A DNA stretch of 64,000 nt from a virus, in the IMG/VR virus record IMGVR_UViG_3300004481_000389, one strand, 5' to 3'. Under the pieces are notes generated by a model. That model had not been told where the DNA came from and searched no databases. It saw only the letters and a list, made by a program, of their open reading frames with translations. The translations under genes were made by a program, and so were the position numbers. Each line of letters begins with the position of its first letter. The first letter of the stretch is position 1. Below are positions 4,857-61,705 of the stretch, piece by piece.

Positions 4857-4860
4857 GTCT

Positions 4861-18636: not shown

Positions 18637-18660
18637 ATTTACCTTATCAATCTAGGCCAG

Positions 18661-32254: not shown

Positions 32255-33280
32255 GTGAGTAAAAATATAGTTTTTAATTTTGATGAAATCAGCAACAAGG
32301 ATAAGGCCACTAAAGCCGTTTCCAACGCATTTAAAAAGGCCGGGGCTGCAATTGCCCAAGTAGACGTATCGCCTAGCGTAAAACGCACATCAGGGATCAG
32401 TTACCGTGAGCTAAGCATTACATTTGCGGATTCCCAGGTGATTGTTTTCCGTATTAAGCAATCTGGTGATATTTACCAGGCTTTGTTAAATGGCAAAGTG
32501 CGCCCAATTACCAATCAGGATGACCATACAGCAGCAATTACCGAGCTGGCTAAGGCCATGGAATCAGGCCGTTCGGCATTCCAGGCAAAGCTGGCCAAAG
32601 CAAAGTTAAAGTTACCAAATGGTATTAAAACCACGGTGCCAAATAAGGAAAAATTGCTGATTGAAAAGCGTGATTCTTTAAAGGAGGCGGTAGCAGCTGC
32701 AGAGCAAGAGCTTAATCAGATCAAAGCTGAAATTGCCAAGTCTGCAACACTGGATTCTGTAACGCTCGATGCGGCTAATGATCCTTTCACGGAATTTGAT
32801 CAACAAGCCCATGAAGCAGCCACTTCACCTTATAGCCGCACACCAGCACCAGCCTGGGATGATCTAATCGCGGGCAATTATAAAAAGGGTGCAATGACCA
32901 TTGCCGGGATGAATATTTCTATTGAAAACCCGGCTGAATCTATCCGTCAGGGTCAAGATTCAAACGGCGAAAAATGGAAAATCACAATGAAGCATCACTA
33001 TGGCTATTTTGATGGCTCGATGGGTGCGGATGGTGATGAACTGGATGTTTTTGTTAAAAACAATCTGGAAGTAGCGCCGGATCATGCCTATATCATTAGC
33101 CAGGTGGATCTTGACGGATCTTTTGATGAACACAAGGTTGTCATTGGTGCCGAAAGTGAAGATGAAGCAAAGGAAATCTATCACTCAAACTACAAAGCCG
33201 GATGGGATGGTTTTGGCAGTATCGAACGTGTGACCATGGATGAATTAAAGGGCCGAATGCAGTACCAAGCAGCAGCTTAA
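32255..33280 (+). CDS. protein with a C-terminal family-I inorganic-pyrophosphatase-like domain
   Basis: HHYGYFDGSMGADGDELDVFV. DGDELDV fits the PPase signature D-[SGDN]-D-[PE]-[LIVMF]-D-[LIVMGAC] as I recall it, and YGY precedes it as in PPases. Confidence 0.6.
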   Translation: MSKNIVFNFDEISNKDKATKAVSNAFKKAGAAIAQVDVSPSVKRTSGISYRELSITFADSQVIVFRIKQSGDIYQALLNGKVRPITNQDDHTAAITELAKAMESGRSAFQAKLAKAKLKLPNGIKTTVPNKEKLLIEKRDSLKEAVAAAEQELNQIKAEIAKSATLDSVTLDAANDPFTEFDQQAHEAATSPYSRTPAPAWDDLIAGNYKKGAMTIAGMNISIENPAESIRQGQDSNGEKWKITMKHHYGYFDGSMGADGDELDVFVKNNLEVAPDHAYIISQVDLDGSFDEHKVVIGAESEDEAKEIYHSNYKAGWDGFGSIERVTMDELKGRMQYQAAA

Positions 33281-33292
33281 ACAGCTTTCAGG

Positions 33293-33319
33293 AAAACGGG
33301 CAATTTAGCCCGTTTTTTT
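33293..33319 (+). terminator. Rho-independent terminator
   Basis: AAAACGGG-caatttag-CCCGTTTT within a T7 run. Confidence 0.7.
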
Positions 33320-33383
33320 GTCTCTAATATTGTTGATTAAGTGAGGTGAAAGCCTTGTAAATTAACTATGTTAAGAGGTCTTT

Positions 33384-36308
33384 ATGACTGTGCAATTTAA
33401 TTGGGATGGTGCCAATAACCCAGTCGGTCAAACAATTGACCAGATGCTTTACCGGATTCGCTCAAATGATAAAGAGGGCTTGATTTTTGATAGTGCGACC
33501 CTGGCTGATTTTATTGAAGATTCAGACGGCGTTATGGCGGTTTTTGATGCCTTAGTTACTCCATATTCACGCCTGGAACGCAAAGTGAATCAATTGCGCC
33601 TAGTGATGGACAAGGCAATTCCCGACCTGGAAACTGTATCGGTCCAGGTATCCGAGCCATTTAAGCAAAATGGCAGTGTGCATGTAGCCGCTGTATTTGA
33701 ATTATCTGATGGTCAGACGGTATCGGTGGTATTTCATAACCCGGATTCAACGCCTAACAAACTGGTCGCCAGTGATGAAATGATTTCCTGGAAGTGGATG
33801 CTCAATAAAAAAGACATTACGATTGTTGTAGCGCCTGAAAATGGCCGTGACCTGGCTATTCGTGAAGTCGGCAGACGTATCATGAAACTGGCCCATAAAA
33901 ACAGCACAGGCTTTGCCCGTTTAAACCAGAAGCGCGCCGAAAAACTTGAGAATATTAAGAATCTTACAGGCGAAGTAGAGCAGCTGGAACAAACGCTATC
34001 AGGCCTGGAAAAAGAGATTGAAGCGGCTAAGGCTGAACAGGCCCGAATTGAGGAAGAAAAAAACAATATTCCAATGATCAAGCAGCTATTTGAAAAGCTG
34101 GTGCGCGGTGGCTGGAAACTGAAAAATGGCCATGACGATTTTTTATCAAAAGAAGAATATGCCTTTGGTGCAAAATCCAATGTTGTTGTGGATTTTAATA
34201 GTTTCGATACTGTAAAAAGTGACATTGAAATTACAGCGGTGGGCGGTGGTTCCAAAACCATGCACATTGGTACCAGTGACCTTGAGGCTGAATTTGATGA
34301 ATTTAAGATTATTGTAGAGGACTTGATGAGTGCCTTGCATGGTAATGGCACGGTCGATTCACTACTTAACCTCCTACAAAACACGTTCAAAATGCAATGT
34401 GAGCGCCTGGCCCCGTTAATCTTTAACGTAACTACGCCTAGAACAAGTAGCGGTGTAACGATTGAGCTTGATGATGATGGTACTTTCCAGTTTGAGAGTG
34501 ATCATTTGTCAGTGGATCACTTGCAGGGTGAAGATAATCAAGCCCTCATTGCTAAAAAACTAGATGAATTAGACTTTGTTGCTTCTCAGGGTGCTTTTGA
34601 TGATGATCCAGAGCTTGAGGGTGATGTAATCCAGGGCGGCGTATTTAAGGGTAAATCTTTTGACTTTGCTTATACCATTGAGCAAATTGAAATCGCTGTT
34701 AATTCACTATCTAGTTTGTCTTTAGTGTTTGGTGACTTTAATCATACGGCGGCAGCTGGTGGCACCTTGTTCGATTCAATTGCTAGTGAATCTAACCCGC
34801 CAATTGAAGGTATTACTGCACAGATTGGATACAAGCCAACTGATATTGTTATGGCTAGGGTAAGTGTAGATGCAGCGGGTAATGCCATTATCTACAGAGG
34901 CGAAACAGGGACCACACAGGAAAGAGGCATTGATGCACCGACCTCCTATAGCCAATTTGTACCTGTATTTAAGCGCCTGATTGCAGAGCTAACCAAAGAG
35001 CCAGAGCTAGAGGAAAAGCTACCTGAGTTAAAAGCCTACCTTGATACATTTACCCCGTTAAAGCGTGGCCAAGTGCTTAAATCTCTATCACGTGCAGCCT
35101 ATGATCTGGATGGTGCGCGTGTCACTGTTGCTGAAACTGTAATTTCACTTGCCAAAAGTGAAGGTGCTAGAGTGGGCGTGAATGGCAAGGATGAAGTGTC
35201 TTTGATGAATGATAAGCACACTTTGAGCAGCAAACTAGGCAAGATCCCCATGAACTTTGGTATCTGGTTGATTGAAAGCGGCACTGTGAAGCCAAAACCA
35301 GCTGCACCGGAATCAAAATATCCGGATGACTTTGATCCGACTACTCCTGAAAATTATGCCCTGGTTAAAGAAAACGGTGATCTTGAAATGTTCCAGGATC
35401 AACTAGATGCGTTTTTCCAAAACCGTTTTATTGATGTGCGAAATGCTTTACGTGACCTGGGTTGGGAAGGTGAGCAAGGCCGTGACTTGAGCAAAAACGG
35501 ATATACCGCAATTCCTCATTTCAAACAGGCGGGTGCGGGCGCTAACCTGGTAGGCATTCATTACACTTTAAACGGTCCTGATGGGAAGGATATTGGATTC
35601 TTTATGTCTGATACTTTGACCTTGAGCGCAGAGCAATATGCGGATCGTGTGAATATGGGTCTACCAGCACAACCAGAGCCAATTGTAGTTAATGGGAGTG
35701 ACCCATTAGATATATCTATGGCGAATAAGCAGAATGCCATTCAATTAGCAGAAAACCTAAAGACTTTTAGCCAACAATCATGGGTTATGAGAACAACTTT
35801 AAATGATGTTAAAGATTTAAGTGTAGATCAGTTTAGAGAGCTTTATCAGGCTGATTTAGAGGCACTAAAGTCTGAGCATGATCAGGTGATTGCAGCATTT
35901 AATACATTGTTTAGAGCAGCTAAGGTTAAGGATCGGGATGTTATTCAAGAAATAGCAAATGAGACAAATTCCATTTATAAGCTACTTACTCCAAAAGGCA
36001 AACAATTAGAATCTGAATGGCAGAAACTAGGTGGTGAATATACAGCTTATCAAAAAAGTTTGAATACAGATCCAATCGTGGACCCAGATCCAGATACAGG
36101 GGATGATGAAATTAATACTTTCTTAAATGATGTAATTGCCAATCCTGGTAATCATACAAATGATGAATCACTGGACCGATTGACAGAACTTGCTGAAAGC
36201 CTGGGTGATGATGAAACAAGTGAATTTGCTATCACTGTGAATAAGGCAGCTAAAGCGGTTCAAGAAGTTGCATTTAAACAGCTTCAAGACATGGTAAGTC
36301 AGGGGTAA
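33384..36308 (+). CDS. 974-aa protein of unknown function (coiled-coil segment, acidic C-terminus); candidate virion cargo protein
   Basis: Long uninterrupted ORF with an AAGAGG RBS. No catalytic motif recognised. Confidence 0.65.
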   Translation: MTVQFNWDGANNPVGQTIDQMLYRIRSNDKEGLIFDSATLADFIEDSDGVMAVFDALVTPYSRLERKVNQLRLVMDKAIPDLETVSVQVSEPFKQNGSVHVAAVFELSDGQTVSVVFHNPDSTPNKLVASDEMISWKWMLNKKDITIVVAPENGRDLAIREVGRRIMKLAHKNSTGFARLNQKRAEKLENIKNLTGEVEQLEQTLSGLEKEIEAAKAEQARIEEEKNNIPMIKQLFEKLVRGGWKLKNGHDDFLSKEEYAFGAKSNVVVDFNSFDTVKSDIEITAVGGGSKTMHIGTSDLEAEFDEFKIIVEDLMSALHGNGTVDSLLNLLQNTFKMQCERLAPLIFNVTTPRTSSGVTIELDDDGTFQFESDHLSVDHLQGEDNQALIAKKLDELDFVASQGAFDDDPELEGDVIQGGVFKGKSFDFAYTIEQIEIAVNSLSSLSLVFGDFNHTAAAGGTLFDSIASESNPPIEGITAQIGYKPTDIVMARVSVDAAGNAIIYRGETGTTQERGIDAPTSYSQFVPVFKRLIAELTKEPELEEKLPELKAYLDTFTPLKRGQVLKSLSRAAYDLDGARVTVAETVISLAKSEGARVGVNGKDEVSLMNDKHTLSSKLGKIPMNFGIWLIESGTVKPKPAAPESKYPDDFDPTTPENYALVKENGDLEMFQDQLDAFFQNRFIDVRNALRDLGWEGEQGRDLSKNGYTAIPHFKQAGAGANLVGIHYTLNGPDGKDIGFFMSDTLTLSAEQYADRVNMGLPAQPEPIVVNGSDPLDISMANKQNAIQLAENLKTFSQQSWVMRTTLNDVKDLSVDQFRELYQADLEALKSEHDQVIAAFNTLFRAAKVKDRDVIQEIANETNSIYKLLTPKGKQLESEWQKLGGEYTAYQKSLNTDPIVDPDPDTGDDEINTFLNDVIANPGNHTNDESLDRLTELAESLGDDETSEFAITVNKAAKAVQEVAFKQLQDMVSQG

Positions 36309-36311
36309 AAA

Positions 36312-36701
36312 ATGAATCAATTGCTATGGGGTGATCAGCCTCATAGCCGTTTTGCTGTCCTTGACAGTGTTTCCCCACTTGAAGCACTTAAAAACAGCCG
36401 GGCGGCCATGGGTCTGATTGCTGAAAAACCCAATCTGAAAAAAACAACTGAAATCATGAGCTGGACCAAAAGAGCAGCTGCTCTACTGGGGTCCATTAAT
36501 GAAGTCTTGCACCCATCCTTAGAAATCCTGAAAAAGATTGGCCAGGGTGCTTATGACCATGAAACCCTCTATTCATTATGGGCCATGATGGATAGTAATT
36601 TAGATGAATTGAGCGCAGACAAAGCGTTTAACGATAAGGCGGGAAGTCTGACGCACAAAGCTATTTCCCGTTGGGCTGAATTGGAGTTAAAGAATGTTTA
36701 A
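36312..36701 (+). CDS. hypothetical protein
   Basis: 129-aa ORF packed between the two large genes. Confidence 0.55.
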   Translation: MNQLLWGDQPHSRFAVLDSVSPLEALKNSRAAMGLIAEKPNLKKTTEIMSWTKRAAALLGSINEVLHPSLEILKKIGQGAYDHETLYSLWAMMDSNLDELSADKAFNDKAGSLTHKAISRWAELELKNV

Positions 36702-38682
36702 TAATGACTACAAAGCGGTTAAAAGCCGACTGGGTTATTGCTTTGACTTGCTGACGGCCAAAGACATGACCAAAGAGCAAAATTCTGAAAAGAATAGCCT
36801 TCTTTTAAAGAAAAAGATCAATACCTTGCGCGCTTTAATTGCGGGTCAAAATCTGCCAGCGCATGAAATCTTATTAACCTCAAATACTTCTATGTTCTCC
36901 TTTTTTAAGGACCAGATTAAAGCGTTTGAAGATGAGACAGATGAAGCGGAAAAGGCTAAAAAATTACTTAGACTGAAAAACTTTATTGATGTGCAAACCG
37001 CCGCAATAAATCTTGATGCTACTCGCATGGTCAGTATGGGCTATGAGCGCAATAAGGTTGCTACTAAGATCGCTGAAAATGCCAGCCTTATCACTGGCCT
37101 GGTTAAGCATACGGTTGAAAATTCAAAAATTAAGGGAATGTTTGATCCAGAAAAAGCACGGTCCCTAATTGATGAAGAAGCTCGCAATACTACAGCTTAC
37201 AATGCACAGTATAGCGCCGCCTGGAAGGTGTTAGTCGAAAAGCATGATTCGATTAGAGGGCCATTTCTTGAATTGCGTAAGAAAATGTTTGATGAGCTGG
37301 AAAGGGAGGGATCGACCCTGGAGCTACGCGAGACTATCCGGGGAGAATACGCAGCCGACTTGAATGCTTTAGAGCAAAAGGCCGATGAAGAATATAAGAA
37401 GCTTAAAGCCAGTCTTTTTGATGACCTGGAGGCCAACTACCAGGCCCAAAAAAATCGTATCGCAGCTGAAAAAATCGCAATGGCCAGGGCGGTTAAAAAT
37501 GCTGTCATTGATCAGTCGACCGTGACCCAGGAAGATGCCGAAAAGTGGATTGCAGAAAAGGTGACTATCACTCAAGCTGTGATCAATAAGATGAAAAAGA
37601 ATGGCATTACGCCTGAGAAGTTTCACCAGGATCTAAAAGACTTTTTTGTTATTACTAATGGCCGCCTGGGTAAAATTAAGATTGATACCAAAAATCACCA
37701 GAGAGCTTATGCCAGCGGCACAACGACCCATGCAACTGAGGGTTTTATCATGCTGGATAATGACTTTAGCCAGCGGGTATTATGGCATGAATTGGCGCAT
37801 CATTTGGAATCTGATGATAACTTGCGTGTTATTGCTCAAGAGTACATTAAATCCAGATCGCTTGATGGAAAACTGGTACACCGCTTACGCAATCTGACCG
37901 AAAATAAGGGCTTTGCAGCTAGTGAAAAGGCATATAAGACAGATATGTTTAATCACTATGTTGCCAAGATCTATGATCATGGGTCCACAGAGGTTTTCTC
38001 TATGGGTGTTGAGGTTCTGTATGACGATGCAGTCTTATTCGATACCATGTTGAAAGACCCTAAAACTATTGAATTTGTCACAGGCGCATTGATGCAGACA
38101 AAGCAAGAAGTGGATCTTATTAATCAACAATTAAGAGATAGCATCCTTAACATAAACGCTGATATTGATAATCTCAGGACTGAACAGTATCAAGAGGTTT
38201 TTGAACAGCTGGCGGGCCTGGTGAAATTCAGTACCACAGTTAATGTCACTGAGGCTGACTTTACCGATCCTGATGCCACTAGATTCTTTAGTGAATGGAA
38301 GTCTAAATTTTATGGCACCTTAACATTGCCAAATGGCCGCGAATTGGTCCTTCTTAAAAGTGGTAAGGTGAAATATAGATCTTTCCGTGGTCGTGCCATG
38401 AAGGGTGTATTCGCTTTAGACTTTGGAAACTATGAGCATGTCAGGGAGGCAATTGCAGAGGGCCGATATACCACTTATTTTGCTTATGGTTACGGCGTGA
38501 AGGAGGAAGTTGCTTTAGCCATCCAAACACAGGACCTTGACCGGATCAAAGTGTTAGCTTTATCAATGGATTTGCACAAGGTTGGCGGGTATAGTATCCC
38601 TAATACTTCTGGCGAAATCGGTGAGGGCTTCACCTCATTTGAAAGCTTAGATAATCTCAAAAGACAATATTTACAGGGCTAG
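36694..38682 (+). CDS. 662-aa protein with a zincin-type HExxH metallopeptidase motif
   Basis: VLWHELAHHLESDD follows a long coiled-coil N-terminal half. This resembles the metallopeptidase modules of polyvalent phage and conjugative-element proteins. Confidence 0.65.
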   Translation: MFNNDYKAVKSRLGYCFDLLTAKDMTKEQNSEKNSLLLKKKINTLRALIAGQNLPAHEILLTSNTSMFSFFKDQIKAFEDETDEAEKAKKLLRLKNFIDVQTAAINLDATRMVSMGYERNKVATKIAENASLITGLVKHTVENSKIKGMFDPEKARSLIDEEARNTTAYNAQYSAAWKVLVEKHDSIRGPFLELRKKMFDELEREGSTLELRETIRGEYAADLNALEQKADEEYKKLKASLFDDLEANYQAQKNRIAAEKIAMARAVKNAVIDQSTVTQEDAEKWIAEKVTITQAVINKMKKNGITPEKFHQDLKDFFVITNGRLGKIKIDTKNHQRAYASGTTTHATEGFIMLDNDFSQRVLWHELAHHLESDDNLRVIAQEYIKSRSLDGKLVHRLRNLTENKGFAASEKAYKTDMFNHYVAKIYDHGSTEVFSMGVEVLYDDAVLFDTMLKDPKTIEFVTGALMQTKQEVDLINQQLRDSILNINADIDNLRTEQYQEVFEQLAGLVKFSTTVNVTEADFTDPDATRFFSEWKSKFYGTLTLPNGRELVLLKSGKVKYRSFRGRAMKGVFALDFGNYEHVREAIAEGRYTTYFAYGYGVKEEVALAIQTQDLDRIKVLALSMDLHKVGGYSIPNTSGEIGEGFTSFESLDNLKRQYLQG

Positions 38683-38961
38683 ATGATGGATATAAATACA
38701 ACGGCGTTAAAAGTGCATACACCTAAAGGCTCATTCTTTGCTGTCTTTCCAGATGATGCTAAAAACTGTGAATTGTGCGGTCCCTGGCTTGAGGCAATTG
38801 GCTACTTTGAGGGTAACTTGCATAAGCTATTTAAGCAGCATGGCCATCCGCTAGAGCTGGCACGGTTGGAGCCGGGAGACCTCATGCTGTATGGCAACCG
38901 TCCGGATCTTGAAATTTCCATTACTGATGACTTTGACCGTGAAGAACTGAGAATGATTTAG
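38683..38961 (+). CDS. hypothetical protein
   Basis: 92-aa ORF; its ATG immediately follows the upstream TAG. Confidence 0.5.
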   Translation: MMDINTTALKVHTPKGSFFAVFPDDAKNCELCGPWLEAIGYFEGNLHKLFKQHGHPLELARLEPGDLMLYGNRPDLEISITDDFDREELRMI

Positions 38962-38978
38962 TAGTAAAAATAACCAAA

Positions 38979-39009
38979 AAAGGCCCTTCCAAGTGAAAGG
39001 CCTTTTTTA
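38979..39009 (+). terminator. Rho-independent terminator
   Basis: GGCCCTT...AAAGGCC hairpin followed by T6. Confidence 0.6.
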
Positions 39010-39080
39010 TAGGAAAAACAAAAGAAAATAAGAAAAATTATCTACCAACATACAAGCTGTTTCACTTGTATGGAGTAGTG

Positions 39081-39440
39081 ATGAAAAGCCTTCAATCACT
39101 CGCTTTGACCCGAAAGGCTTTAAAGCTAATCGCAGAAAAAGCAACCACTAAAACCACGATGGCAGTTTTACGCTGGAATAAAGAGGCACTGGCTTTGCTA
39201 GGGCAAGCTTTTCCCAAAATTAAAACTGATGAATCGAATCCTGATTACCAGTATTTGCAGTCTGTAATTAAACGCGAATTACCCAATATGAATGACCCCG
39301 ATATTGGCAATCGCATGACAGACATTCTTAACCGAAATTCAGAAAACTCGGCATTCCTTTCGTATGTGCAACAAGCCGTTGCTGCATACCGCGAAGCCTT
39401 GCTTGCTGCATCCACTCAATTTTTATGGGGTAACGCTTAA
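39081..39440 (+). CDS. hypothetical protein
   Basis: ATG at 39081 with GGAG 6 nt upstream. Its stop overlaps the start of the giant gene. Confidence 0.5.
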   Translation: MKSLQSLALTRKALKLIAEKATTKTTMAVLRWNKEALALLGQAFPKIKTDESNPDYQYLQSVIKRELPNMNDPDIGNRMTDILNRNSENSAFLSYVQQAVAAYREALLAASTQFLWGNA

Positions 39441-42400
39441 TGTTTGGCATTTTATTCGATGATGCTGGCAATCCTAAATTGACCACACAGGCGCTTGAGC
39501 TTACTAGCAAGCTGCAAAATATTGTTGATAGCCTCAAAACGCCACAAAATAGCCTAGAAGGCCTTTTGTCTGAAATTGGCACTATCACACGTGGTAATCA
39601 CTTAATTGCGGATTTGAAGCAATTAGGCGGCAATATCGGCGGTGTTTCATTGCAAATTAATGATGATCCAGCAATTCCATTGTCAAAACCACGTAAAAAG
39701 ACGGATCAGCACTACAATTTCCAGCAAAACAACACAAAGAACAAACGCCAAAAGGACAACATTGCGGCGGTGGAATTGGTGCGCCAATACAATGCGGGTG
39801 AAATCACTTTAGATTCCATTACCGATGAGCAAAAAGACATTTTAGGCCGATACACCGGGAACGGCGGCAACTTGCTCGATGTGGAAACAGGTATGCGCGG
39901 CTCAGACTATGAGTATTACACGCCTAAGCCTATTGCTTCTGGTATTTGGGACGTTCTAAATGATATGGGCTTTGGTGGCGGTAAAGTGCTGGACCCATGC
40001 GCTGGTGTAGGTATTTTTGGTGCTACTGCACCATTAAATGCGGCTATTGATGCTGTAGAGCTGGATAAGACTAGCGGCACGATCAATAAGCTGATTAATG
40101 AATCAGACAGCTATAACGTGCGTGTAAGTAATTTTGAGAGTGTGGCAGCGCGTACACCAGATGAATCATACGATGCCATTGTGGCTAACGTTCCATTTGG
40201 TAGTAATCGCGGTCGTAACTTCAAATACGATGAAAAATACCAGAAAGCTAGTCTTGAGTATTACTTCATCATGCGTTCCCTGGAAAAGCTTAAAGGCGGT
40301 GGCTTGGCTGCATTCCTGGTACCGGATCGCTGCATGACAGGCAAATCAAGTAAAGAACGTGCATTGCGCCAGGATTCAAGCCTACTGGGTGAATTTTTGG
40401 GAGCGTATCGCTTGCCTAACAAAGTATTTGGCGCTGCAGCAGCAGATACCATTACTTGTGTGATGTTCTACCGCAAACATAGCAAAGCGGCTTTAGAGAA
40501 GGTCAGCGACCTCTATTCTGGTGGTGAAGCTAAGACGCTTTCTGATGCTCAAGTGCTATGGGATTCATTTGTTGATGGCAAATACTTTGAAACCAGCGAA
40601 GGTAAAAAGCGCGTCCTGGGTGATGACTTCATCAAAGCAGAGGAAGGCGATAAATACGGGCGTGATCAACTAACTTCTAGTGAAGATATTTTGGCAATCG
40701 CTAAGCGTATGCTGGTTCACAAATTGCCGAAAACCCGTATTGACTGGGCTTTGCTGGATGAAACCGAAGCTTTCCCAATTTCTTACAATGAAGGCGATAC
40801 CATTACCCAACGTGGCCAGACTTTGCAGCTGGTGAATGGTAATTGGGTCGTATTGAATCCAAGCCCTGAAAACAACGCAAAAATGGACCTGCTAAGTGAT
40901 GCACAGGACCCATACAGTGCTTTTGTTTCCAATATTACGATTGAACAGGTCGATGAATTAGCCGACCACATGAAAAAAATGTCTATGGCGCTGGATATGC
41001 CGCCGTGGATGGGTCAAATGCGTGTTGCTTTGGCGGGTGGTAAAACCCTGGACCAACGCAAGCAGCTTTACAAGCCAATCCTGATTGGTATGTGTGTAAA
41101 GCAGATCATGGATGAGGAAGGGCTAGATTCAGGCACCAACTTCAAAGAGAAATACCAGGATCTATCGGCTGAAATGGAGCGTTACGCCTCAGATGCCAAT
41201 AAAGTGAAAGGTGTTGAAGGTGAAGCGAAGCTTGCAATCCTGGAATACAAAAAGCATTACAAGAAAGGGACCGGATTTAGCTCAATTTGGCTTGGTGAAA
41301 TTCGCCAGGTAACAGAAGTTGAAATGACCCCGGACGCAAGCCTGGACGGCGTGATTTATGTGAATAAATCGCCGTGGTTCACTGTTGAACAGGCTAGAGC
41401 CTCACTTGGTCCAGACTTTGACCCATTTAAGGACCCTGAATACTGCCTATCTGATGATGGCAATAAAATCTGTCGTTCTGATGATTACTATGTTGGCAAC
41501 CTGGGTGAGTTTTTAAAGCGGATCGATCCGGCAATTGAAAATGCAGCCAATGATTCAATCCGAAATAAGCTACTGGCACAGAAAAAGGCGGCGTTTGAAC
41601 GTGTGACTAAGATCGATGTTCAAGAAATGCACTTCAACCTATTTTCGCCATACGTGACGATTGAAGAAAAAGCAGAGTTTTTGCGCCGTTCCGTACATGC
41701 CAGTGCGCGTGTGGTTGATGTTGATGGTGAAAAAACAATTTCATTCAACGTAACTTCATCGGAAAAGGATAAAAACAATCGTGCCAAGTACATTGGCCGC
41801 CTGGAAAGCTATTTGAAGCATGGCAATGTCTCCTTGCAGGGCATTAAAATCGAAGGTATTTCTGAGGAAAAGCAGCTCGAAGAACTCCGAAGCTTTATCA
41901 ACAAAACCAACGATAAATTTAATAGCTATGTGCGTTCTAATACCAGGATTACTAACCGCCTAGAAAGTACGGCAAACGATCCTAAAAACATGCGTTTTAA
42001 GCAGCTTGAAGATACTAAGGACTTGATTGTTCAAGGTATGAATCCAGAGCTTAAATTGCACACGTATCAACGCGCTTTCGTGCGTAAAATGTCGCGTGAT
42101 TTCAGCGGTATCAATGGCTTTGATGTGGGCTTAGGTAAAACCTTTACGGCACTTGCATCGGTCCAATACGTGCAGTCTATTGGCGTTAAAAAGCGCACTA
42201 TGTTTGTGGTCCCAGGATCGGTGCTATCAAACTGGCGTAAAGAAGCATTGCGGGCATATAAAACGATTGATGATTGTTTGTTTGTGGGCTTGCGTGAAAA
42301 CGGTGATGGCAACCTAATTGCTGATTCCAAGTATTACGATGAAGATTTAATGTCGATTGTGAGCAACAAGCCGAATAAGATTTTTATCAGCTTTGAAGCT

Positions 42401-45400
42401 TTTGAGCGCATTAAATTAAAGGCTGAAACTATTGAGCATTTTGAGAATCATATTCGCTCGGTTGATGCCTCGTTTATGGAAGATGATAGCCGTAAAAATG
42501 AGGAAAAAACCCAGGCGAAACTTGAAGGCCTAACCGCTATTTTGTCGAAAAAGACAGGCGCGGCACCTTATCTTGAGCAATTGGGGATTGATTCAATCGT
42601 GATTGATGAAGCCCATGCTTATAAAAACTCAAGTGCTGTGCGTGAATTTAAGGGCGGTAAATACCTATCAACCGCTGGCATGTCTGGCCGTGGTATCGAT
42701 GCACAATGTAAGGCCTGGTTTATCCGTGGTATGTCGGATCGTAAAGACGGCGTATTGCTACTGACTGCTACCCCGATTACCAATAGCCCGCTTGAAGTCT
42801 ATTCAATGATGAGCCTGGCGGTTGGCCATGAGCGCGTGAACAGTTTAGCTATGGGTGTATCTGGTGCTGATGACTTCATGAATGCTGTGTGTGTCATGGA
42901 AGATGAACAGGAAGAATCTATCGATGGCCAAATGAGTAACAAGCGTATCTTTAAAGGCCTAAGTAACCCGGCAATGTTACGCAATCTTATTTCTGATGTG
43001 GCCACAATTAAAACCGCCGATGATGTAGGCGCGCAAATCGTGGTACCAGATGAAGATACTCAAGAAACGATAGTAACGCTTGATAAGTATTCCCAGGATA
43101 AGCTGGATACTTATAAGAATGCCTATCGCTATGCTATGGACCTGATCCGTGACCGTGCTTTGCCATTTGGCCCAGGTGTGGCGGCGTATGATTACGTTAA
43201 GCAGCAATTTGGTGAAAAGGACGATGTAATCGCGCATCCATTTAACTTGATCAATAAAATGACGATGTTAATTGCCGATCCTGACCTGGATAAGCAATAC
43301 ACCAAGTACGTGATTGGCCAGGACCAAAAAGAGGCACTTGATAAGGTTCTAGCTGAGTGGGATAAGAAGCGACCTAAAGAGGACCGTGGCCGTATTAGCC
43401 CGCATACTCAAGAAAGCGATTACTCCTTAAAGATCAAGAAGAACAAGGATACAGGTGAGGAAACAGCGATTTATACAATTCAGGTTCGCGCCTGGGCTGA
43501 TAATGCCAATGTTTACCTGGATTCTACCGACTGGAAAACACAAGAAGCATTCGAGACGCTGGCCGAAAAACACGGACTAGGCCTGGATTGCGTCATGTCT
43601 CCAAAAATGGCCGCTATGATCGATAACCTCAAGCGTGAAAACTCGCATGTTCGCGGTGTGAATGCTCAAGGTGAAAAAGCGCCGTATGCGAAACAGATTG
43701 TTTTCTGTGACATTTTGGGTATCCACAACAAAATGCGTAAGTTGATCGCTAAGCATTTAGGTGTTTCAGCAAGCCAGATCGCTATTGTGACCGGACAGCG
43801 AAATAATGATGCAGCTGAAATTTTGGAGATTCAAAATAACTTCAATGATTATGGTGAAGATAACTATCGCATCATCATTGCCAACAAGAAGGCCGAAGTC
43901 GGTATTAACTTGCAAATCGGTACTCAGGCAATTCATCACTACACAATTGGCTGGACCCCGGATAGCTTGCAACAACGTAACGGTCGCGGTGTGAGACAGG
44001 GCAACAAGACAGAAAAAGTAACTGTGTATCATTATGACGCGCAAGGTACTTTTGATGCAGCTAAGCGCACCCTGGTAAACAATAAAGCTGACTGGATCGG
44101 TGAGCTGATGGACGGTCAAGGTTCTGAGAGCATTAAGATTGTAGGCGGTATGTCCAATGAGCAGATCCGGGCGCTGGCTGAATTTGCGGGCGGTGATGCT
44201 TTAGAAGCCATGCAAGCCGAAATTGCACGTAATGAAAAAATGCGTCATGAAAAGGAAAATGTGGAGCGTCAAAAAGCATTACTTGAGACGGCAAAACAGC
44301 AACAAGACTTTCTTGATAAGAACAAGGATTTTTCAGGATGGGTTAAACGTGACTTTGATGCTTTGATGCAAACCGCCTCAAGTGTCGGCAAGCTGGAACG
44401 TTTAATCAAAAAAGAAAATGATCTTAAAGCTGATCTAGCTGAAATCGTAGCAAGTAGTGGCTCAGTGAAGGACGTACAAGCCAAACTGAACAATATTGAG
44501 AAATCAAAACTCAAGCTTGAAAACGAAATGCGCCAGGCGAATAAGCTAATGGCTCGTATTGCCGGGGCGGTAAATGCGGTAGTTGCAAATTACAACTTTG
44601 AGCAAATTGCACCAGATAAAGCAGCGTATGTGATCAATAAAAAGTTCCGTGAACGTGCTGAACAGCCACATTCTAAGGCCACACTTACAGATACTTTTTA
44701 TGATCATGAAGATGGTGTGCGTTATGGCGTAAAAGTGAAGGCTAAGGAGGAAGTGGAAGGCTCAGAACTTTACAATGAGTGGAGCTTTGAGGTTGATTCT
44801 GCAGCTGGCTTGATCCGTGAAACGGTGAAGCAATTTAAAGAACGTGCGAAGGTTGATAATTCAATCAATGAGCGCGTGATTGATGACTTTATCGGTGAAG
44901 ATCGAAATGGCCAGATTAGCCCGTCCGGTGTTTTATTTTCAAAGTCTTGTTTCCTGGTGAAAAACAACGACCCTAAACAAGCGGTTTATTACTTTACAGG
45001 TGTGCCACAAGAAAATCAGTATGGTTCTAAAATTAAGGGCTTGATCAATGGTGAAAGGACCGATACTGAATTTAACTATGATTTTGTAGATCAACCTGAG
45101 TACAGCGTGGCTTATCCTGATTCTGATTTATATACGCAGTGCTGCATTGCCCTGGCTGAATATGAAGATTCATTGGTAGGCACCGTTTCCACTAAAGAAG
45201 GCAACCTATTTAGTGATGTTATGCCGGATATTTTGAAATATCGTAAGGGTATTATCGAAATCGCTTTTGAGTACGCTAACAGCTACTTGCAGGGCCACTA
45301 TTACCCATACGTGATGAATGCACATGAGCCAGATAAATTGAGCGATTTTGAGAAAGCAGTTGTTAAACAGCAATCAGAAATCGTATTGAGACATACGAAA

Positions 45401-46168
45401 TATCATTTCTATGTATTGGCTGAAAATGAGCATTTAATTACCAAAAATCGCCCGACCATTGGTAATAAAACCGCAGTGATCCGTGACTTTTGTTTAGCCA
45501 ATAACTTTAAGGCCAGTGTTTCTGATATTCCGGTATCTTTTAAACTGTCTGTTGAATTGGCGAATTACATTCGAGAAGGTGATGCTAAGGATCGATTATT
45601 TACCTTTATTGACCGGGCAAAATTTGAGACGGTGGCTGCATTCCGTGAAGCTTTGGCCCAGGTGGTATGTGATGAATTTACACCGTTTATTCATGATATG
45701 GAGCCGGATACGTCAATCATGCTGGACGTAGTAGATCGAGTTTATGAGGTGAGTAATATCTATCGCACTAAACAAGCTGAAATTCTGGCAATTGAGAAAG
45801 CAGCTCAAGCGATTAATGCACCGGAAGTACAAGAGCCTCAGCCGATTGATGTGACGATCCATGAGCCGGATATAGAGCCTGGTGCTATTCCAAAAACTGC
45901 AATCATCCGTGTGGAGACTAACGGCTTTAATACTTTGCCGTATCGTGAAAAATTCCGGGAATATTCGGATGAGATTCAAAATGCGACAAGTTATGCTAAA
46001 CCTGATCATTGGTCGAAGTACAATAAGCGTTTTAGCAATGCCTCCGCTTGTTGGAATAAACCGCTTAAACAGTGGGAAATTCCATACGGTGCATGGCAGC
46101 TATTCGAGCAGCGTGATAGCGAACTGACAGATGCTTGCACATTCACAGTAATTTATGGCGGGGTTTAA
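39440..46168 (+). CDS. DarB-like giant protein: N-terminal SAM-dependent DNA methyltransferase plus SF2 (DEAH/SNF2-like) helicase
   Basis: Methyltransferase motifs: VLDPCAGVGIFG (motif I) and ANVPFG (motif IV). Helicase motifs: GFDVGLGKT (Walker A), VIDEAHAYKN (DEAH), LLLTATPITNSP and QQRNGRGVRQGN (motif VI). At 2242 aa it is comparable to P1 DarB. Confidence 0.85.
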   Translation: MFGILFDDAGNPKLTTQALELTSKLQNIVDSLKTPQNSLEGLLSEIGTITRGNHLIADLKQLGGNIGGVSLQINDDPAIPLSKPRKKTDQHYNFQQNNTKNKRQKDNIAAVELVRQYNAGEITLDSITDEQKDILGRYTGNGGNLLDVETGMRGSDYEYYTPKPIASGIWDVLNDMGFGGGKVLDPCAGVGIFGATAPLNAAIDAVELDKTSGTINKLINESDSYNVRVSNFESVAARTPDESYDAIVANVPFGSNRGRNFKYDEKYQKASLEYYFIMRSLEKLKGGGLAAFLVPDRCMTGKSSKERALRQDSSLLGEFLGAYRLPNKVFGAAAADTITCVMFYRKHSKAALEKVSDLYSGGEAKTLSDAQVLWDSFVDGKYFETSEGKKRVLGDDFIKAEEGDKYGRDQLTSSEDILAIAKRMLVHKLPKTRIDWALLDETEAFPISYNEGDTITQRGQTLQLVNGNWVVLNPSPENNAKMDLLSDAQDPYSAFVSNITIEQVDELADHMKKMSMALDMPPWMGQMRVALAGGKTLDQRKQLYKPILIGMCVKQIMDEEGLDSGTNFKEKYQDLSAEMERYASDANKVKGVEGEAKLAILEYKKHYKKGTGFSSIWLGEIRQVTEVEMTPDASLDGVIYVNKSPWFTVEQARASLGPDFDPFKDPEYCLSDDGNKICRSDDYYVGNLGEFLKRIDPAIENAANDSIRNKLLAQKKAAFERVTKIDVQEMHFNLFSPYVTIEEKAEFLRRSVHASARVVDVDGEKTISFNVTSSEKDKNNRAKYIGRLESYLKHGNVSLQGIKIEGISEEKQLEELRSFINKTNDKFNSYVRSNTRITNRLESTANDPKNMRFKQLEDTKDLIVQGMNPELKLHTYQRAFVRKMSRDFSGINGFDVGLGKTFTALASVQYVQSIGVKKRTMFVVPGSVLSNWRKEALRAYKTIDDCLFVGLRENGDGNLIADSKYYDEDLMSIVSNKPNKIFISFEAFERIKLKAETIEHFENHIRSVDASFMEDDSRKNEEKTQAKLEGLTAILSKKTGAAPYLEQLGIDSIVIDEAHAYKNSSAVREFKGGKYLSTAGMSGRGIDAQCKAWFIRGMSDRKDGVLLLTATPITNSPLEVYSMMSLAVGHERVNSLAMGVSGADDFMNAVCVMEDEQEESIDGQMSNKRIFKGLSNPAMLRNLISDVATIKTADDVGAQIVVPDEDTQETIVTLDKYSQDKLDTYKNAYRYAMDLIRDRALPFGPGVAAYDYVKQQFGEKDDVIAHPFNLINKMTMLIADPDLDKQYTKYVIGQDQKEALDKVLAEWDKKRPKEDRGRISPHTQESDYSLKIKKNKDTGEETAIYTIQVRAWADNANVYLDSTDWKTQEAFETLAEKHGLGLDCVMSPKMAAMIDNLKRENSHVRGVNAQGEKAPYAKQIVFCDILGIHNKMRKLIAKHLGVSASQIAIVTGQRNNDAAEILEIQNNFNDYGEDNYRIIIANKKAEVGINLQIGTQAIHHYTIGWTPDSLQQRNGRGVRQGNKTEKVTVYHYDAQGTFDAAKRTLVNNKADWIGELMDGQGSESIKIVGGMSNEQIRALAEFAGGDALEAMQAEIARNEKMRHEKENVERQKALLETAKQQQDFLDKNKDFSGWVKRDFDALMQTASSVGKLERLIKKENDLKADLAEIVASSGSVKDVQAKLNNIEKSKLKLENEMRQANKLMARIAGAVNAVVANYNFEQIAPDKAAYVINKKFRERAEQPHSKATLTDTFYDHEDGVRYGVKVKAKEEVEGSELYNEWSFEVDSAAGLIRETVKQFKERAKVDNSINERVIDDFIGEDRNGQISPSGVLFSKSCFLVKNNDPKQAVYYFTGVPQENQYGSKIKGLINGERTDTEFNYDFVDQPEYSVAYPDSDLYTQCCIALAEYEDSLVGTVSTKEGNLFSDVMPDILKYRKGIIEIAFEYANSYLQGHYYPYVMNAHEPDKLSDFEKAVVKQQSEIVLRHTKYHFYVLAENEHLITKNRPTIGNKTAVIRDFCLANNFKASVSDIPVSFKLSVELANYIREGDAKDRLFTFIDRAKFETVAAFREALAQVVCDEFTPFIHDMEPDTSIMLDVVDRVYEVSNIYRTKQAEILAIEKAAQAINAPEVQEPQPIDVTIHEPDIEPGAIPKTAIIRVETNGFNTLPYREKFREYSDEIQNATSYAKPDHWSKYNKRFSNASACWNKPLKQWEIPYGAWQLFEQRDSELTDACTFTVIYGGV

Positions 46169-46173
46169 AACTA

Positions 46174-46593
46174 ATGGCATTTTCTGAATTTTTATTCGAT
46201 AAGGCCTATATTGATGAGGTGGCCGCAAATGCGGCTGCTTCACTCAAGGCAAATCGTGGTTTTTCTAACCTGGAAGGGTTCGCGGCTGGTGTAATTCAAC
46301 GCCGTTTAGCAAAGGACCCGGCTCGTTATCTGGACTATGGTGTTTATTGGCCAGCCTTAAAAGCGGTGCTGCATAAGCATGGCTTTGATTTTGGCGCGCC
46401 AGTTTATCCGCAACTTTGCGCGGTTTATTGCGGCGATAATGACTTACAGACAATCATTATGGCTGATGAATTTAGGAATGATTATCTGGCCACTCAGTTT
46501 GTGGGTACCAGGACCTTTTTAGTCGATAAAGAGACGGGTGAGGAAATCATTTTGATCGATGATGACATGGAAGGGAAAGCCCTCAATTCATAA
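46174..46593 (+). CDS. hypothetical protein
   Basis: 139 aa from ATG 46174, just after the giant gene stop. Confidence 0.5.
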   Translation: MAFSEFLFDKAYIDEVAANAAASLKANRGFSNLEGFAAGVIQRRLAKDPARYLDYGVYWPALKAVLHKHGFDFGAPVYPQLCAVYCGDNDLQTIIMADEFRNDYLATQFVGTRTFLVDKETGEEIILIDDDMEGKALNS

Positions 46594-46597
46594 CCCT

Positions 46598-46632
46598 GGA
46601 AGGCCCGTTTAAATAGCGGGCCTTCTTGTTTT
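46598..46632 (+). terminator. Rho-independent terminator
   Basis: 9-bp stem GAAGGCCCG/CGGGCCTTC followed by TTGTTTTT. Confidence 0.7.
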
Positions 46633-46647: not shown

Positions 46648-48225
46648 TTGCCGTTTTCACTCATGGGCCGCGTTTATCGTGGAATGATGAAAAATGTATC
46701 TAATTCTCCGAAAGGGCGCGGTAATTTTCTAAACAACTTTGGCATTTCTGCTAAAAAATGGGGTTCGGAAAATTTACCACTCGCCAATGAAATCACTCAG
46801 ACCGATCTAACATTATACGGGTCCGGTTCGACTACAGTTGCCTCTTTATTATCTAGTGGTTCCAGGACTGCTAGAACTCGTCAAAATATCTATGACAAAT
46901 GGGCCTTAATGGAAAGTGACCCGATCATTTCCACGGCCTTAAAGATCCTTGTAACCTCCGCTTTGGGTGGCCATGAGACAAGCGGGGACCTGGTATTTTT
47001 GGAGACAAAACCAGGCCTGGCGAAAAACGATAAGCGCATGAAGTATATAGACGAAATCAGGGCAGACCTGGTGCCGCTATTTAACAAAGTAGCTTATACA
47101 AGTAGCTACCTGGCTGCTGCTTTTGGTGATTCTTATGTCCGGGTTCACTCCAATAAAAATGGCATTCAGGATCTTTATATTGGTGAATTGGTACGCCCTA
47201 CATTGATCCAACCGTTTGAACGTGGCAGTCGCACGGTCGGCTATGCTGTTTCCTCCGGTGCAAAGAATTTCCAGCGCCTCGATGCCCTCCAAATGGCGCG
47301 AATGAAGCTGCCCCGTACCCAGTGGATACCTCAAGTTGGTGTGGTCGAAAAATCAATGCGCTATGCGCTTGAAATCGATGATATGGATGAATTGCCACTT
47401 ATGCCCGCAATGGTCGGCGGCTCACTCTTATATTCGGCTGAATCGCCGTATGACAACCTCACATCATCATTGCTTGGCCTGGTTGGTCAGCGGTGGATGG
47501 ATTCAATCGATGAGCAGCTGCTCACAGTGAATCTTGAAGGCATGGATAAAAGCCAGCAATCACGCTTCCTGGAATCCATGAAAAAGATGCTGATTAAGTC
47601 TAAGCAAATTGCTGAAAACGCTGTGAAGCGTAACAGGCCTGTCATGGAGCGTATTCGTCATGTGGTCCCAGTATTCAGCGAAAAGCAGCTCACACAGGTT
47701 GCGGGCAATGTAGGCGGCCAGCGTAGTGCCAATGTATCAATTGAGGACATTATGCTACATGCGCGCTTGCTGTCCGGTTCAATGGGTGTGGATCTGTCCA
47801 TGCTTGGCTTTGCCGATCAGCTGGCGGGTGGCCTGGGTGAAGGTGGATTTTTCAGAACATCGGCCCAAATTGGGGAAAGCTCACGGACCATTAGAACGGC
47901 CCAGGCTGAATTTTATGATTCGATCATTGATATTCACACGTATAAAAAATACGGCTTTGTCTTTGATAAAAATGACCGTCCTTTTTCAATCAATTTCTAT
48001 GGGTCCATTAGTGCGCTAGAAAACGAAAAACAGGCGACCCGTGCCAATGCAATGAACGGCGGCTTGATGTTGGTTCAGGCCATGCAGCAATTTAAGGACC
48101 TGGGCGCTGATAAGGAAATGATGAAGCAATTTCTGATGCAGACCATGTTGCTTGATGAGGATATTGCTCAGCTATACAGCGCAATTGTTGATGTTAAAGG
48201 GGGTGAGGATGAGCCTCTACAATAA
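46648..48225 (+). CDS. putative portal protein
   Basis: 525 aa. YDKWALMESDPIISTALKILV resembles the N-terminal motif of Mu-type (DUF935-like) portals. The start is uncertain: TTG 46648 or ATG 46663. Confidence 0.5.
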   Translation: MPFSLMGRVYRGMMKNVSNSPKGRGNFLNNFGISAKKWGSENLPLANEITQTDLTLYGSGSTTVASLLSSGSRTARTRQNIYDKWALMESDPIISTALKILVTSALGGHETSGDLVFLETKPGLAKNDKRMKYIDEIRADLVPLFNKVAYTSSYLAAAFGDSYVRVHSNKNGIQDLYIGELVRPTLIQPFERGSRTVGYAVSSGAKNFQRLDALQMARMKLPRTQWIPQVGVVEKSMRYALEIDDMDELPLMPAMVGGSLLYSAESPYDNLTSSLLGLVGQRWMDSIDEQLLTVNLEGMDKSQQSRFLESMKKMLIKSKQIAENAVKRNRPVMERIRHVVPVFSEKQLTQVAGNVGGQRSANVSIEDIMLHARLLSGSMGVDLSMLGFADQLAGGLGEGGFFRTSAQIGESSRTIRTAQAEFYDSIIDIHTYKKYGFVFDKNDRPFSINFYGSISALENEKQATRANAMNGGLMLVQAMQQFKDLGADKEMMKQFLMQTMLLDEDIAQLYSAIVDVKGGEDEPLQ

Positions 48226-49006
48226 CATTGCGAAAAAATCCAAACAATCGGGCCTGGTGAGCGCAATTACTAAAGGCGCTCAGTCTGTTGTTGGATCAGC
48301 TATTAACAAGACCATGAATAGCTCACTGGCCAGCCCTCTATTCGATCAGGCGGCCAAAATAGGTATTACGCCAGACCTGGCTAGTTTTGTGGCGAATGAG
48401 TTTGCCGGGCAATACATTTCAGACAAGGTTAGTGAAGCAGAATCATTAATCAAAAAGCAAATAAGTACCTGGATTAACAAGATTGGCGGGGGCTTTAAGG
48501 GGATTCCTGAAAAAGCCCAGTACCGTGAATTTATTGCGCTTAGTCGTGCCAGAAAAAACAATTTTATTGTTCAGGTTGAAAGTAATTTGACGGGTGATTT
48601 CTCCAAAAAGATGAATCTATTTGTCACAGACATAGATTTAAACCCGATGAATATTTCAGGCGAAAAACGGCGGGTCGGTGGTGGATTTATTGATGCGCCG
48701 ACCGGGGCCGAAGCTACTGAGATTCGTATCACAACTATGGATGATAAGGCGGGAACGATTAAGAAGTGGTTTGAGCAGCAATGTGCTGCAGTCGTGGCTG
48801 CTGATGGGACATTTGGTGTGCCAGCCAGTTATGGAATCACAATTAAAGTCTTACATGCTGTGGTGAATGGTCAAAACTCAAAAGATGCCTTTACTAATAA
48901 GGGGTTATATCGTGCGGCCTCTTATGAGGTGCAGTTGTCCCGCAGAGAACAGGCCATGCAAGAAGTGACCCTCACTTTCACTCAACTTGATTCATTTAGA
49001 AGGTAG
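48209..49006 (+). CDS. hypothetical tail-module protein
   Basis: 265 aa from ATG 48209, with GGTGAGG RBS. Lies directly upstream of the tape measure gene. Confidence 0.5.
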   Translation: MSLYNNIAKKSKQSGLVSAITKGAQSVVGSAINKTMNSSLASPLFDQAAKIGITPDLASFVANEFAGQYISDKVSEAESLIKKQISTWINKIGGGFKGIPEKAQYREFIALSRARKNNFIVQVESNLTGDFSKKMNLFVTDIDLNPMNISGEKRRVGGGFIDAPTGAEATEIRITTMDDKAGTIKKWFEQQCAAVVAADGTFGVPASYGITIKVLHAVVNGQNSKDAFTNKGLYRAASYEVQLSRREQAMQEVTLTFTQLDSFRR

Positions 49007-61150: not shown

Positions 61151-61705
61151 TTAGCCAAGTCGCCAATCTAGGGGCGCAAAAGGTAGATCATCATCTAAAT
61201 CACTGGTGCCGCCGCCGCCGTTTGGTGGGGGTGGTGTATTTGTCCGGGGTGCATTGCCATAGCCTCCCTGGTTGCGCGGTGGTGGGCTGTTATAGCCTGG
61301 CTGTTGCTGATTCCCATAGCCTGACTGCTGTTGGCCATTACCGCCTCGTTGCTGGCCATTGCCATCATGTCGGGGACTATCCACCAGCTGCATAACTTCG
61401 CCGCGAACTTCGGTTGTGTAACGTTCCTGGCCGTTCTGATCCGTCCATTGCCGGGTGCGTAATGAGCCTTCGATATAAACTTTCGAGCCTTTACGCACAT
61501 ATTGGGCGGCAATTTCAGCCAGGCGATTATTTAAGACAATGCGGTGCCACTCGGTTTGTTCTTTGCGTTCACCCGTAGTTTTATCGGTCCAGCTGTCACT
61601 GGTTGCAATTGAAAACTGTGTGAGTGAGCCGCCATTTGGAAAAGTTTTAGTTTCAGGGTCCTTTCCTACAGTACCAACTAAAATAACCTTATTCACGCCT
61701 CGCAT
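61151..61705 (-). CDS. ssb: single-stranded DNA-binding protein
   Basis: OB-fold N-terminus [18 protein letters not shown]...TEWHRIV, a Gly/Gln/Pro-rich linker, and the DDDLPF acidic tip followed by 8 extra residues. Confidence 0.9.

Follow-up and report, generated by a model that had tools for sequence, protein, structure and literature searches.

A 64,000-nucleotide (nt) stretch of viral DNA, IMG/VR record IMGVR_UViG_3300004481_000389 (the window, to which all coordinates refer), carries between its baseplate and portal genes a block of genes that, at a probability of about 0.82, represents the Dar (defence against restriction) cassette of a temperate Acinetobacter myophage distantly related to P1, once the block is extended to position 32255. 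Five of the six P1 Dar components have significant homologues here in P1 order, and the sixth, DdrA, has a positional counterpart. The basis for this reading is homology, a gene order resembling that of P1, catalytic motifs that are intact, purifying selection, and the recurrence of an eight-gene cassette across distant hosts. Virion presence, ejection with the DNA and cis protection against type I restriction are known only for P1 (PMC12810830, PMC9024508), and it is by analogy with P1 that we infer packaging, injection and an anti-restriction phenotype for the proteins described here. The original prediction of a Dar-like locus around DarB beside the portal gene is supported, but its statement that no partner apart from DarB is recognisable as a P1 Dar protein is not, since Hdf, DarA, the peptidase domain of DdrB and Ulx were also matched.

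A mechanical list of open reading frames (ORFs) agrees with the seven plus-strand ORFs placed in the block before, of 974, 129, 662 and 92 amino acids (aa) in a first cluster and 119, 2242 and 139 aa in a second (33384-36308, 36312-36701, 36694-38682, 38683-38961, 39066/39081-39440, 39440-46168 and 46135/46174-46593). The alternative starts give 124 or 119 aa at 39066/39081 and 152 or 139 aa at 46135/46174, and the forms deposited at NCBI use the 119-aa and 139-aa starts. Of the extent first proposed, the end bounded by a terminator stands, while the start should move to 32255, the hdf-like gene lying upstream of the first terminator. The related loci used for comparison were Xanthomonas phage Rb1 (PQ569993, L001), four close loci (L004-L007) and L011-L013.

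The largest protein of the block (2242 aa, 39440-46168, + strand) was matched to P1 DarB at E 2e-123 over residues 103-1692 of 2,242 (about 1,590 residues, 71% of the protein), and to phrog_11801 at 2475 bits. Pfam found an Eco57I-type N6-methylase, SNF2/ResIII and Helicase_C in it, which together with its length reproduces the DarB architecture of about 2250 aa with an N6-adenine methyltransferase and an SF2/SNF2 helicase. The motifs of both enzymes are intact, namely methylase motifs I (DPCAGVG) and IV (NVPF) and, in the helicase, Walker A (GLGKT), DEAH and motif VI (QRNGRGVRQG). The protein was therefore correctly called a DarB homologue, with the portal gene adjoining as in P1. The ulx homologue (46174-46593, + strand) begins 5 nt past darB, in the same position after darB as in P1. 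Its 139-aa product, one of those thought unrecognisable, is a full-length match to phrog_1629, labelled 'Ulx-like anti-restriction' (E 1.2e-34, residues 1-138 on profile positions 1-137 of 138), and is matched by P1 Ulx at E 9e-7.

A giant methylase-SNF2 protein with its neighbours might also be read as a prophage-carried host defence, DISARM- or BREX-like, that guards the lysogen. The helicase region of DarB indeed gave weak NCBIfam matches to DISARM DrmD (63 bits), DpdE and a PLD anti-phage protein; however, the DrmD score stands against a cut-off of 610 bits, and DrmA, DrmB, DrmC and PLD partner genes were not found, on which grounds the DISARM-like candidate was rejected. The similarity to P1 DarB over 71% of the protein, the Dar synteny in a late structural-gene context and the PHROG labels DarB-like and Ulx-like also speak against host defence, which is highly improbable here.

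The darA-like gene (33384-36308, + strand) encodes the 974-aa protein, which matches Pfam DarA_N at E 8.5e-42, P1 DarA at E 6e-24 and the PDB chain 9ukm_I at E 5e-23 by sequence. Its AlphaFold model (a pLDDT, or predicted local distance difference test score, of 71) has the in-capsid P1 DarA, 9ukm_I, as top PDB match (Foldseek E 7e-10), with 302 of the 303 modelled residues aligned. The protein is arranged as an N-terminal propeptide-like region of low confidence, DarA_N, a long helix and a penton-binding-like domain, so that DarA_N, the capsid-binding helix and the penton-binding domain of DarA are all found; the remaining ~570 residues form alpha/beta and helical domains without assigned function. 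A protein not recognised before as a P1 Dar protein is thus a DarA homologue by Pfam, by BLASTP with P1 and by PDB sequence and fold. An antisense ORF within this gene (33734-34390, - strand, 218 aa) was judged spurious and is probably not a gene, being Ser/Leu-rich as the reverse frame of a Glu/Lys/Ala-rich coiled-coil gene; it remains open in relatives, and P1 annotates an antisense ORF, iddB, inside ddrB.

Immediately upstream of darA, a second DarA_N protein of 341 aa is encoded at 32255-33280 (+ strand), which is the place and kind of P1 Hdf, with an extra C-terminal InPase. The capsid anchor, of Hdf/DarA_N type, spans residues 1-163 (Pfam DarA_N E 1.5e-20), and the InPase, a family I inorganic pyrophosphatase-like domain (PF18823, E 2e-45), spans residues 206-333. 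The protein matches phrog_1620, 'Hdf-like antirestriction', at E 8.6e-42 and has Hdf as its best P1 match (E 1.3e-9); in the PDB it matches Hdf itself (9ukm_H, E 5e-9) and a portal-InPase protein (9b41_L, E 1.8e-26). The InPase domain retains a metal-binding signature, DGDELDV, at residues 259-265, which we take to fit the family I pyrophosphatase signature PROSITE PS00387. The 'pyrophosphatase-like protein just upstream', proposed before as a partner foreign to P1, is therefore Hdf with a fused InPase, as the phrog_1620 and PDB Hdf matches indicate; the InPase domain itself does lie outside the P1 set.

The 662-aa zincin (36694-38682, + strand) consists of a coiled-coil N-terminus, an MPTase domain at about 227-455 and a C-terminal part of about 200 aa without assigned function, and is DdrB-like in its metallopeptidase domain only. 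It matches P1 DdrB residues 784-966 at E 1.5e-11 and phrog_2299 positions 739-934 of 995 at E 1e-15. The HExxH noted before was confirmed at residue 365, corresponding to residue 872 in P1, and lies in WHELAHHLE (364-372) as compared with WHELGHHLE of P1 DdrB. Pfam searches on sub-segments of the 974- and 662-aa proteins returned noise only, and a PDB profile search with the zincin family returned nothing. The MPTase was identified in P1 DdrB and proposed to process DdrB itself before packaging, with the ParB-like domain predicted as the packaged fragment (Iyer et al. 2017, PMC5512222). The view that a zincin is not part of the P1 set was mistaken, because P1 DdrB has this WHELxHHLE metallopeptidase domain at its end, as described in that study.

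Three small proteins complete the cassette. An all-helical 129-aa protein (36312-36701, + strand) occupies the slot of P1 ddrA by position and size only (P1 DdrA has 121 aa); its gene begins 3 nt past darA-like and shares its last 8 nt with the gene that follows. The 119-aa protein (39081-39440, + strand) is its paralogue, as indicated by BLASTP (E 2e-8 over 38 aa) and hhalign (probability 97%, E 5.5e-11). The family is small, with 18 representative relatives of both types in an exhaustive search with a hidden Markov model (HMM). The conserved 92-aa protein (38683-38961, + strand) belongs to a family whose HMM scored 40 bits against residues 16-96 of the Rb1 DarB, as compared with 8.3 bits for the best shuffle (1,332 of 2,000 shuffles returned a score); by this sequence comparison, therefore, the Rb1 DarB has the 92-aa module as its N-terminal domain. 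The candidate identification of the 92-aa protein as P1 Hxr was rejected, no similarity being found. The comparisons with the P1 set thus matched Hdf, DarA, DdrB (peptidase), DarB and Ulx; for the 129-aa protein homology to DdrA could not be shown, and the 119- and 92-aa proteins have no P1 counterpart.

A mode of action can be drawn by analogy with P1, for which cryo-electron microscopy showed DarA and Hdf on the inside of the capsid as 55 pairs, located at penton-hexon junctions, in contact with DNA and absent from emptied heads (PMC12810830). Loading in P1 starts with Hdf and DarA; DdrA, DdrB, DarB and Ulx come after them, and none of these enters the head if Hdf or DarA is missing; the protease Pro trims the DarA N-terminus (PMC12810830). 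All six Dar proteins are found in P1 virions, and DarB's 30 N-terminal residues target the capsid (PMC9024508). In the Acinetobacter phage, the Hdf-like and DarA-like proteins would likewise attach in pairs to the inside of the capsid while the head is assembled, and a Pro protease would trim the DarA N-terminus. The Hdf/DarA scaffold would then recruit the 129- and 119-aa helical proteins, the DdrB-like metallopeptidase, Ulx, and last the 250-kDa DarB. All Dar proteins would exit the head alongside the DNA and protect the entering genome in cis against type I, and possibly other, restriction, while the InPase pyrophosphatase would be an added cargo on the Hdf anchor.

The same P1 data could be taken to mean that the Hdf- and DarA-like proteins serve mainly as a scaffold for head assembly and size, with DarB as an ordinary intracellular methyltransferase-helicase modifying progeny DNA and nothing functional injected. 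Deletion of P1 darA or hdf lowers normal-size heads from ~80% to ~15%, and the pairs sit at the penton-hexon junctions like an accessory scaffold (PMC12810830); moreover, the Dar genes here lie among morphogenesis genes, and packaging is a matter of analogy. In P1, however, the proteins do both jobs, with all six in virions (PMC9024508), and Ulx, whose only listed P1 role is helping DarB reach the head, is conserved and adjoins darB here. Furthermore, an InPase on a capsid anchor, and on the portal in 9b41, is best explained as cargo. The scaffold explanation is accordingly considered unlikely, and that of a Dar cassette is retained.

The cassette is conserved as a unit in related loci. The order hdf - darA - 129 - zincin - 92 - (119) - darB - ulx is kept in the four close loci and also in L012 (GC 41%), L013 (GC 37%) and L011 (GC 64%), and in Rb1 with fusions; the 92-aa gene is kept in L004-L006 and L011-L013. 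Ratios of nonsynonymous to synonymous substitution rates (dN/dS) of 0.07-0.18 were obtained across the six genes compared, namely the hdf-like, 129-, 662-, 92-, 119-aa and ulx genes; the values were 0.08 for the hdf-like gene, 0.16-0.18 for the 129-aa gene, 0.10-0.17 for the 92-aa gene and 0.07-0.09 for the 119-aa gene.

Within this conserved order, domains are shuffled between the proteins. The InPase sits on Hdf here and at the DarA N-terminus in Rb1 (41% identity) and L011; in L005 only residues 1-158 of the Hdf-like protein were matched by tblastn, and the InPase may be absent from it. The domain is also found on a portal protein (PDB 9b41), and further DarA_N + InPase proteins occur elsewhere (P0072-P0077, L011). 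Matches to the C-terminal half of the 119-type protein lie at the very C-terminal ends of DarA-like proteins in Rb1 (1159-1218 of 1221, conditional E 5e-6) and L011 (1057-1114 of 1121, independent E 0.01), two loci without a separate 119-type gene; this evidence is weaker than that for the 92-aa fusion, though consistent. The fusions in relatives, of the 92-aa module, the 119-type C-terminal half and the InPase, tie otherwise unidentified partners to Dar proteins. Because of this fusion and fission across lineages (92 aa with DarB in Rb1, the 119-type C-half with DarA in Rb1 and L011, InPase on Hdf or DarA), a tentative proposal, possible though rather doubtful, is that the Dar internal scaffold acts as a plug-and-play cargo carrier, in which DarA_N anchors would bring in an active pyrophosphatase and the 92- and 129/119-aa proteins would be adaptors loading DarB and its partners.

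In the deposited Rb1 genome the annotation masks such a cassette. The product labelled 'internal head protein' is an InPase-DarA fusion, the 'M12B reprolysin-like' peptidase is a DdrB-type zincin, and the 'chromatin remodeling complex ATPase' corresponds to DarB carrying a fused domain of the 92-aa family; between the first two, at 15480-15944, lies an unannotated 154-aa ORF homologous to the 129-aa protein.

Rb1 is the closest isolated phage, with a DarB 41% identical over 86% and the order darA - small ORF - zincin - darB - ulx; it differs in having the InPase at the DarA N-terminus, the 92-aa module on DarB, the 119-type C-terminal module at the DarA C-terminus and a portal gene that is not adjacent. 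In common with P1, the block encodes homologues of Hdf, DarA, the DdrB peptidase domain, DarB and Ulx, and the within-operon order hdf-darA-[121/129 aa]-ddrB and darB-ulx, with the portal adjacent, mirrors that of P1 and of Escherichia phage D6; in P1, darB has prt directly beside it, and ddrA (121 aa) begins at the darA end. A homologue of the Pro protease and a P1-like virion gene set are found in the same genome. In phage D6, too, the dar operon continues directly into prt, and the DdrB there is likewise a 'half' protein, of 454 aa, which by its length and N-terminal sequence is apparently the N-terminal ParB-like half, the converse of the peptidase half in the window.

The differences from P1 are several. 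The genes form one contiguous locus instead of two operons ~7 kb apart, and hdf is the last gene of the baseplate cluster, with no preceding lydA/lydB. Hdf carries the InPase, DarA has 974 aa as compared with 639 aa in P1 with an unrelated C-terminal part, the DdrB-like protein is without the ParB-like domain, homology to DdrA is undetectable, the 92-aa and 119-aa genes are additional and have no P1 counterpart, and protein identities are only 25-38%. The description of the system as 'analogous but differently composed' is thus largely replaced by homology of five of the six P1 components; what survives of it is the InPase, the extra 92- and 119-aa genes, the missing ParB domain and the unproven homology to DdrA. 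The block is an Acinetobacter-phage version of the known P1 Dar system and no new kind of system.

The domains of the block recur among the polyvalent proteins, which likewise contain DarA-N, MPTase zincin, InPase, and methylase with SNF2 helicase, and which were proposed to be packaged and delivered early; combinations of DarA_N with InPase and MPTase were already catalogued there (Iyer, Burroughs, Anand, de Souza, Aravind 2017, PMC5512222). In polyvalent proteins the domains are joined in one giant polypeptide, whereas here they are distributed over eight separate, translationally coupled genes. The internal proteins IPI-III of phage T4 are alike in concept, as they are loaded into the prohead and injected against restriction (PMC9024508); unlike the proteins here, they are small and have a cleaved N-terminal targeting peptide, and no relationship to them in sequence or structure was found.

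These recurrent domains raise the question whether the phage injects the products of the cassette as general effectors of the polyvalent kind, with a main target other than type I restriction, for instance nucleotide signalling or pyrophosphate-sensitive early reactions reached through the InPase. The absence of the DdrB ParB domain and the large parts of DarA and DarB unrelated to P1 could be so explained, and Acinetobacter carries different defence repertoires. Early-infection roles have indeed been proposed for InPase, MPTase and DarA_N (PMC5512222). This explanation is, however, compatible with that of a Dar cassette, and the best-conserved part of the block is DarB, with methylase and helicase motifs as in P1; no domain specific for another defence system was found in the block proteins by Pfam or NCBIfam, which counts against a different main target. 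We regard such a target as improbable.

Several observations weigh against assigning the block to the Dar system. The cassette of this phage is known here from its genes. By NCBIfam anti_RE_DarA the 974-aa protein scores 91.5 bits, under the equivalog cut-off of 350 bits, and because of this it is classed by sequence as DarA-related rather than as a close orthologue. Its ~570 C-terminal residues have no similarity to P1 by Pfam on sub-segments or by Foldseek, in which the model matched the DarA part only and gave no extra domains. Similarly, the C-terminal ~550 aa of DarB are without similarity to P1, and the N-terminal capsid-targeting sequence of P1 DarB could not be aligned, the alignment beginning at residue 103; the DarA and DarB C-termini were not found in the window by tblastn. 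A DdrB-type ParB domain was found neither in the 662-aa protein by domain search nor, with P1 and D6 queries, anywhere in the window by tblastn. No similarity of the 129- and 119-aa proteins to DdrA was detected by BLASTP or by profile-profile comparison with expanded families; for the 129-aa protein, the hhalign probability was ~1%, and Foldseek on a model of pLDDT 65 gave no match. DdrA is a fast-evolving protein, since that of P1 and that of D6 share only 33% identity. A match of the 154-aa ORF of Rb1 to D6 DdrA (E 1e-5 without composition correction, across a Pro-rich linker) is too weak to count. Finally, the two intergenic gaps upstream of 33384 and 39081 yielded no P1 late-promoter box and no plus-strand sigma-70 promoter.

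The block is divided by three terminators, which lie where they had been reported. The intrinsic terminator after hdf-like (33289-33320, + strand) has a 13-bp stem followed by a T run (-18.6 kcal/mol, z -5.7); the hairpin between the gene clusters (38974-39013) is flanked by A/T runs and reads as a terminator in either direction (-14.5 kcal/mol, z -3.1); and that after ulx (46598-46626, + strand) has a 12-bp stem, 7 of its pairs being G-C, ahead of a T-rich tail (-21.7 kcal/mol, z -4.9). A generic terminator scan was near chance overall, with 24 found as compared with 18.4 expected, and these three are its top hairpins and fall exactly at the gene-cluster boundaries. In related loci the pairing of the first two stems is preserved through compensatory changes, namely a G-C to A-T change in L005 for the first and stem changes in L004 and L005 for the second. 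As for the P1 Lpa-dependent late promoter (a -22 box AAGTGACTT plus a -10), no convincing arrangement was seen upstream of 33384 or 39081, which could reflect a different late activator; conserved intergenic sequence blocks are present in both gaps in alignments of the related loci. Of the proposed 'two transcription units', therefore, the terminators are confirmed and the promoters are not, and the units are drawn from the terminators alone. Within each cluster the genes are tightly packed or overlapping, as in the TAATG by which the stop of the 119-aa gene overlaps the start of darB. The GC content of the block equals that of its flanks, and the block is therefore not a recent insertion.

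In the second gap, a conserved inverted repeat, ACAAGCTGTTTCACTTGT, lies at 39040-39080, immediately 5' of where the 119-aa gene has its ribosome-binding site, and hardly varies among L004-L006. It includes the reverse complement of ACAAGTGA, which resembles the P1 late -22 box; this site is too near the 119-aa start codon for a promoter role in that orientation.

The flanks are as first described, with tail and baseplate genes (P1 bplB- and gp5-like) upstream and the portal gene directly after the block. The portal gene, a P1 prt homologue of 525 aa (46648-48225, + strand), matches P1 Prt at E 5e-38 and phrog_1497 at E 2e-166, and is followed by genes for the tube, the tape measure and the baseplate. 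The tube-like ORF, as called mechanically (48152-49006, TTG start), shares 74 nt with the portal gene; it aligns to its PHROG from residue 20 onwards, so that the true start is probably further downstream.

The rest of the window is also P1-like. BLASTP with the P1 proteome matched Pro, gp25, gp23 (capsid), gp22 (sheath), gp21, BplB, gp5 and Prt, and further Tub, Sit (tape measure), BplA and Ssb; the gene for the head-processing protease, pro-like, lies at 16542-17372 (+ strand; P1 Pro E 1.8e-17). A replication initiator (11923-12900, - strand), a ParA-like protein (15557-16201, - strand), a Cre/integrase-like tyrosine recombinase (59091-60314, + strand), a RecE-like exonuclease (62700-63956, - strand) and a tRNA gene (4370-4443, + strand; Rfam 75 bits; P1 also has tRNA genes) fit a P1-style plasmid prophage. 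Other genes encode an SSB 48% identical to P1 Ssb (61151-61705, - strand), a DNA methyltransferase (4987-5718, + strand) and the large terminase (6252-7775, + strand). Megablast of the block against phage and plasmid collections returned nothing, and relatives were reachable at the protein level only. Public records for Acinetobacter lwoffii and A. nosocomialis contain identical proteins, on ~78-kb contigs, and a related contig comes from an Acinetobacter metagenome-assembled genome; WP_253145219, WP_253145223 and WP_253145224 are proteins of the ~78-kb element. The window derives from a distant P1-like temperate myophage of A. lwoffii/nosocomialis that is probably plasmid-borne, and its structural genes amid plasmid-prophage hallmarks suggest a ~78-kb P1-style phage-plasmid. 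Assignment to the Acinetobacter 'AB' phage-plasmid group was rejected, that group comprising ~110-kb elements as compared with ~78 kb here (PMC7969092), as was Acinetobacter phage ABMM1 as a relative, which shares only a DarA_N protein.

Two further features of the phage were observed outside the block. The 9-bp motif TAAGTGCAT and its one-mismatch variants occur in both orientations in clusters at 15484-15639, 16301-16452, 18580-18706 and 4859-4899, with 5-6 copies each spaced by ~8-16 bp; the clusters are intergenic, beside the genes for the ParA-like and pro-like proteins and the one at 18794, and look like operator or iteron arrays of a phage-plasmid regulator or replication system. The tail-fibre protein (54709-58398, + strand, 1229 aa) has many repeated stretches that match tail-fibre PHROGs, as many as 8 for one family, and this points to a mosaic protein with internal repeats, like P1 S.

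Two block proteins are named 'DarA-related' by UniRef and called hypothetical in NCBI records. Dar, so far discussed for enterobacterial P1-like phages, is also found as a conserved eight-gene cassette in phages of Acinetobacter, Xanthomonas and uncultured hosts (37-64% GC). The apparent core of the system consists of two DarA_N anchors, the zincin, DarB and Ulx, while the InPase, the ParB domain and the small helical modules appear swappable. The domain fusions give hypotheses on the contacts made during Dar assembly, that is, which small protein pairs with which large one, and these are relevant to Acinetobacter phage therapy and to the delivery of proteins from phage heads. If the cargo-carrier proposal is true, it would tell which protein contacts which and would provide handles for engineered protein delivery by P1-like phages.

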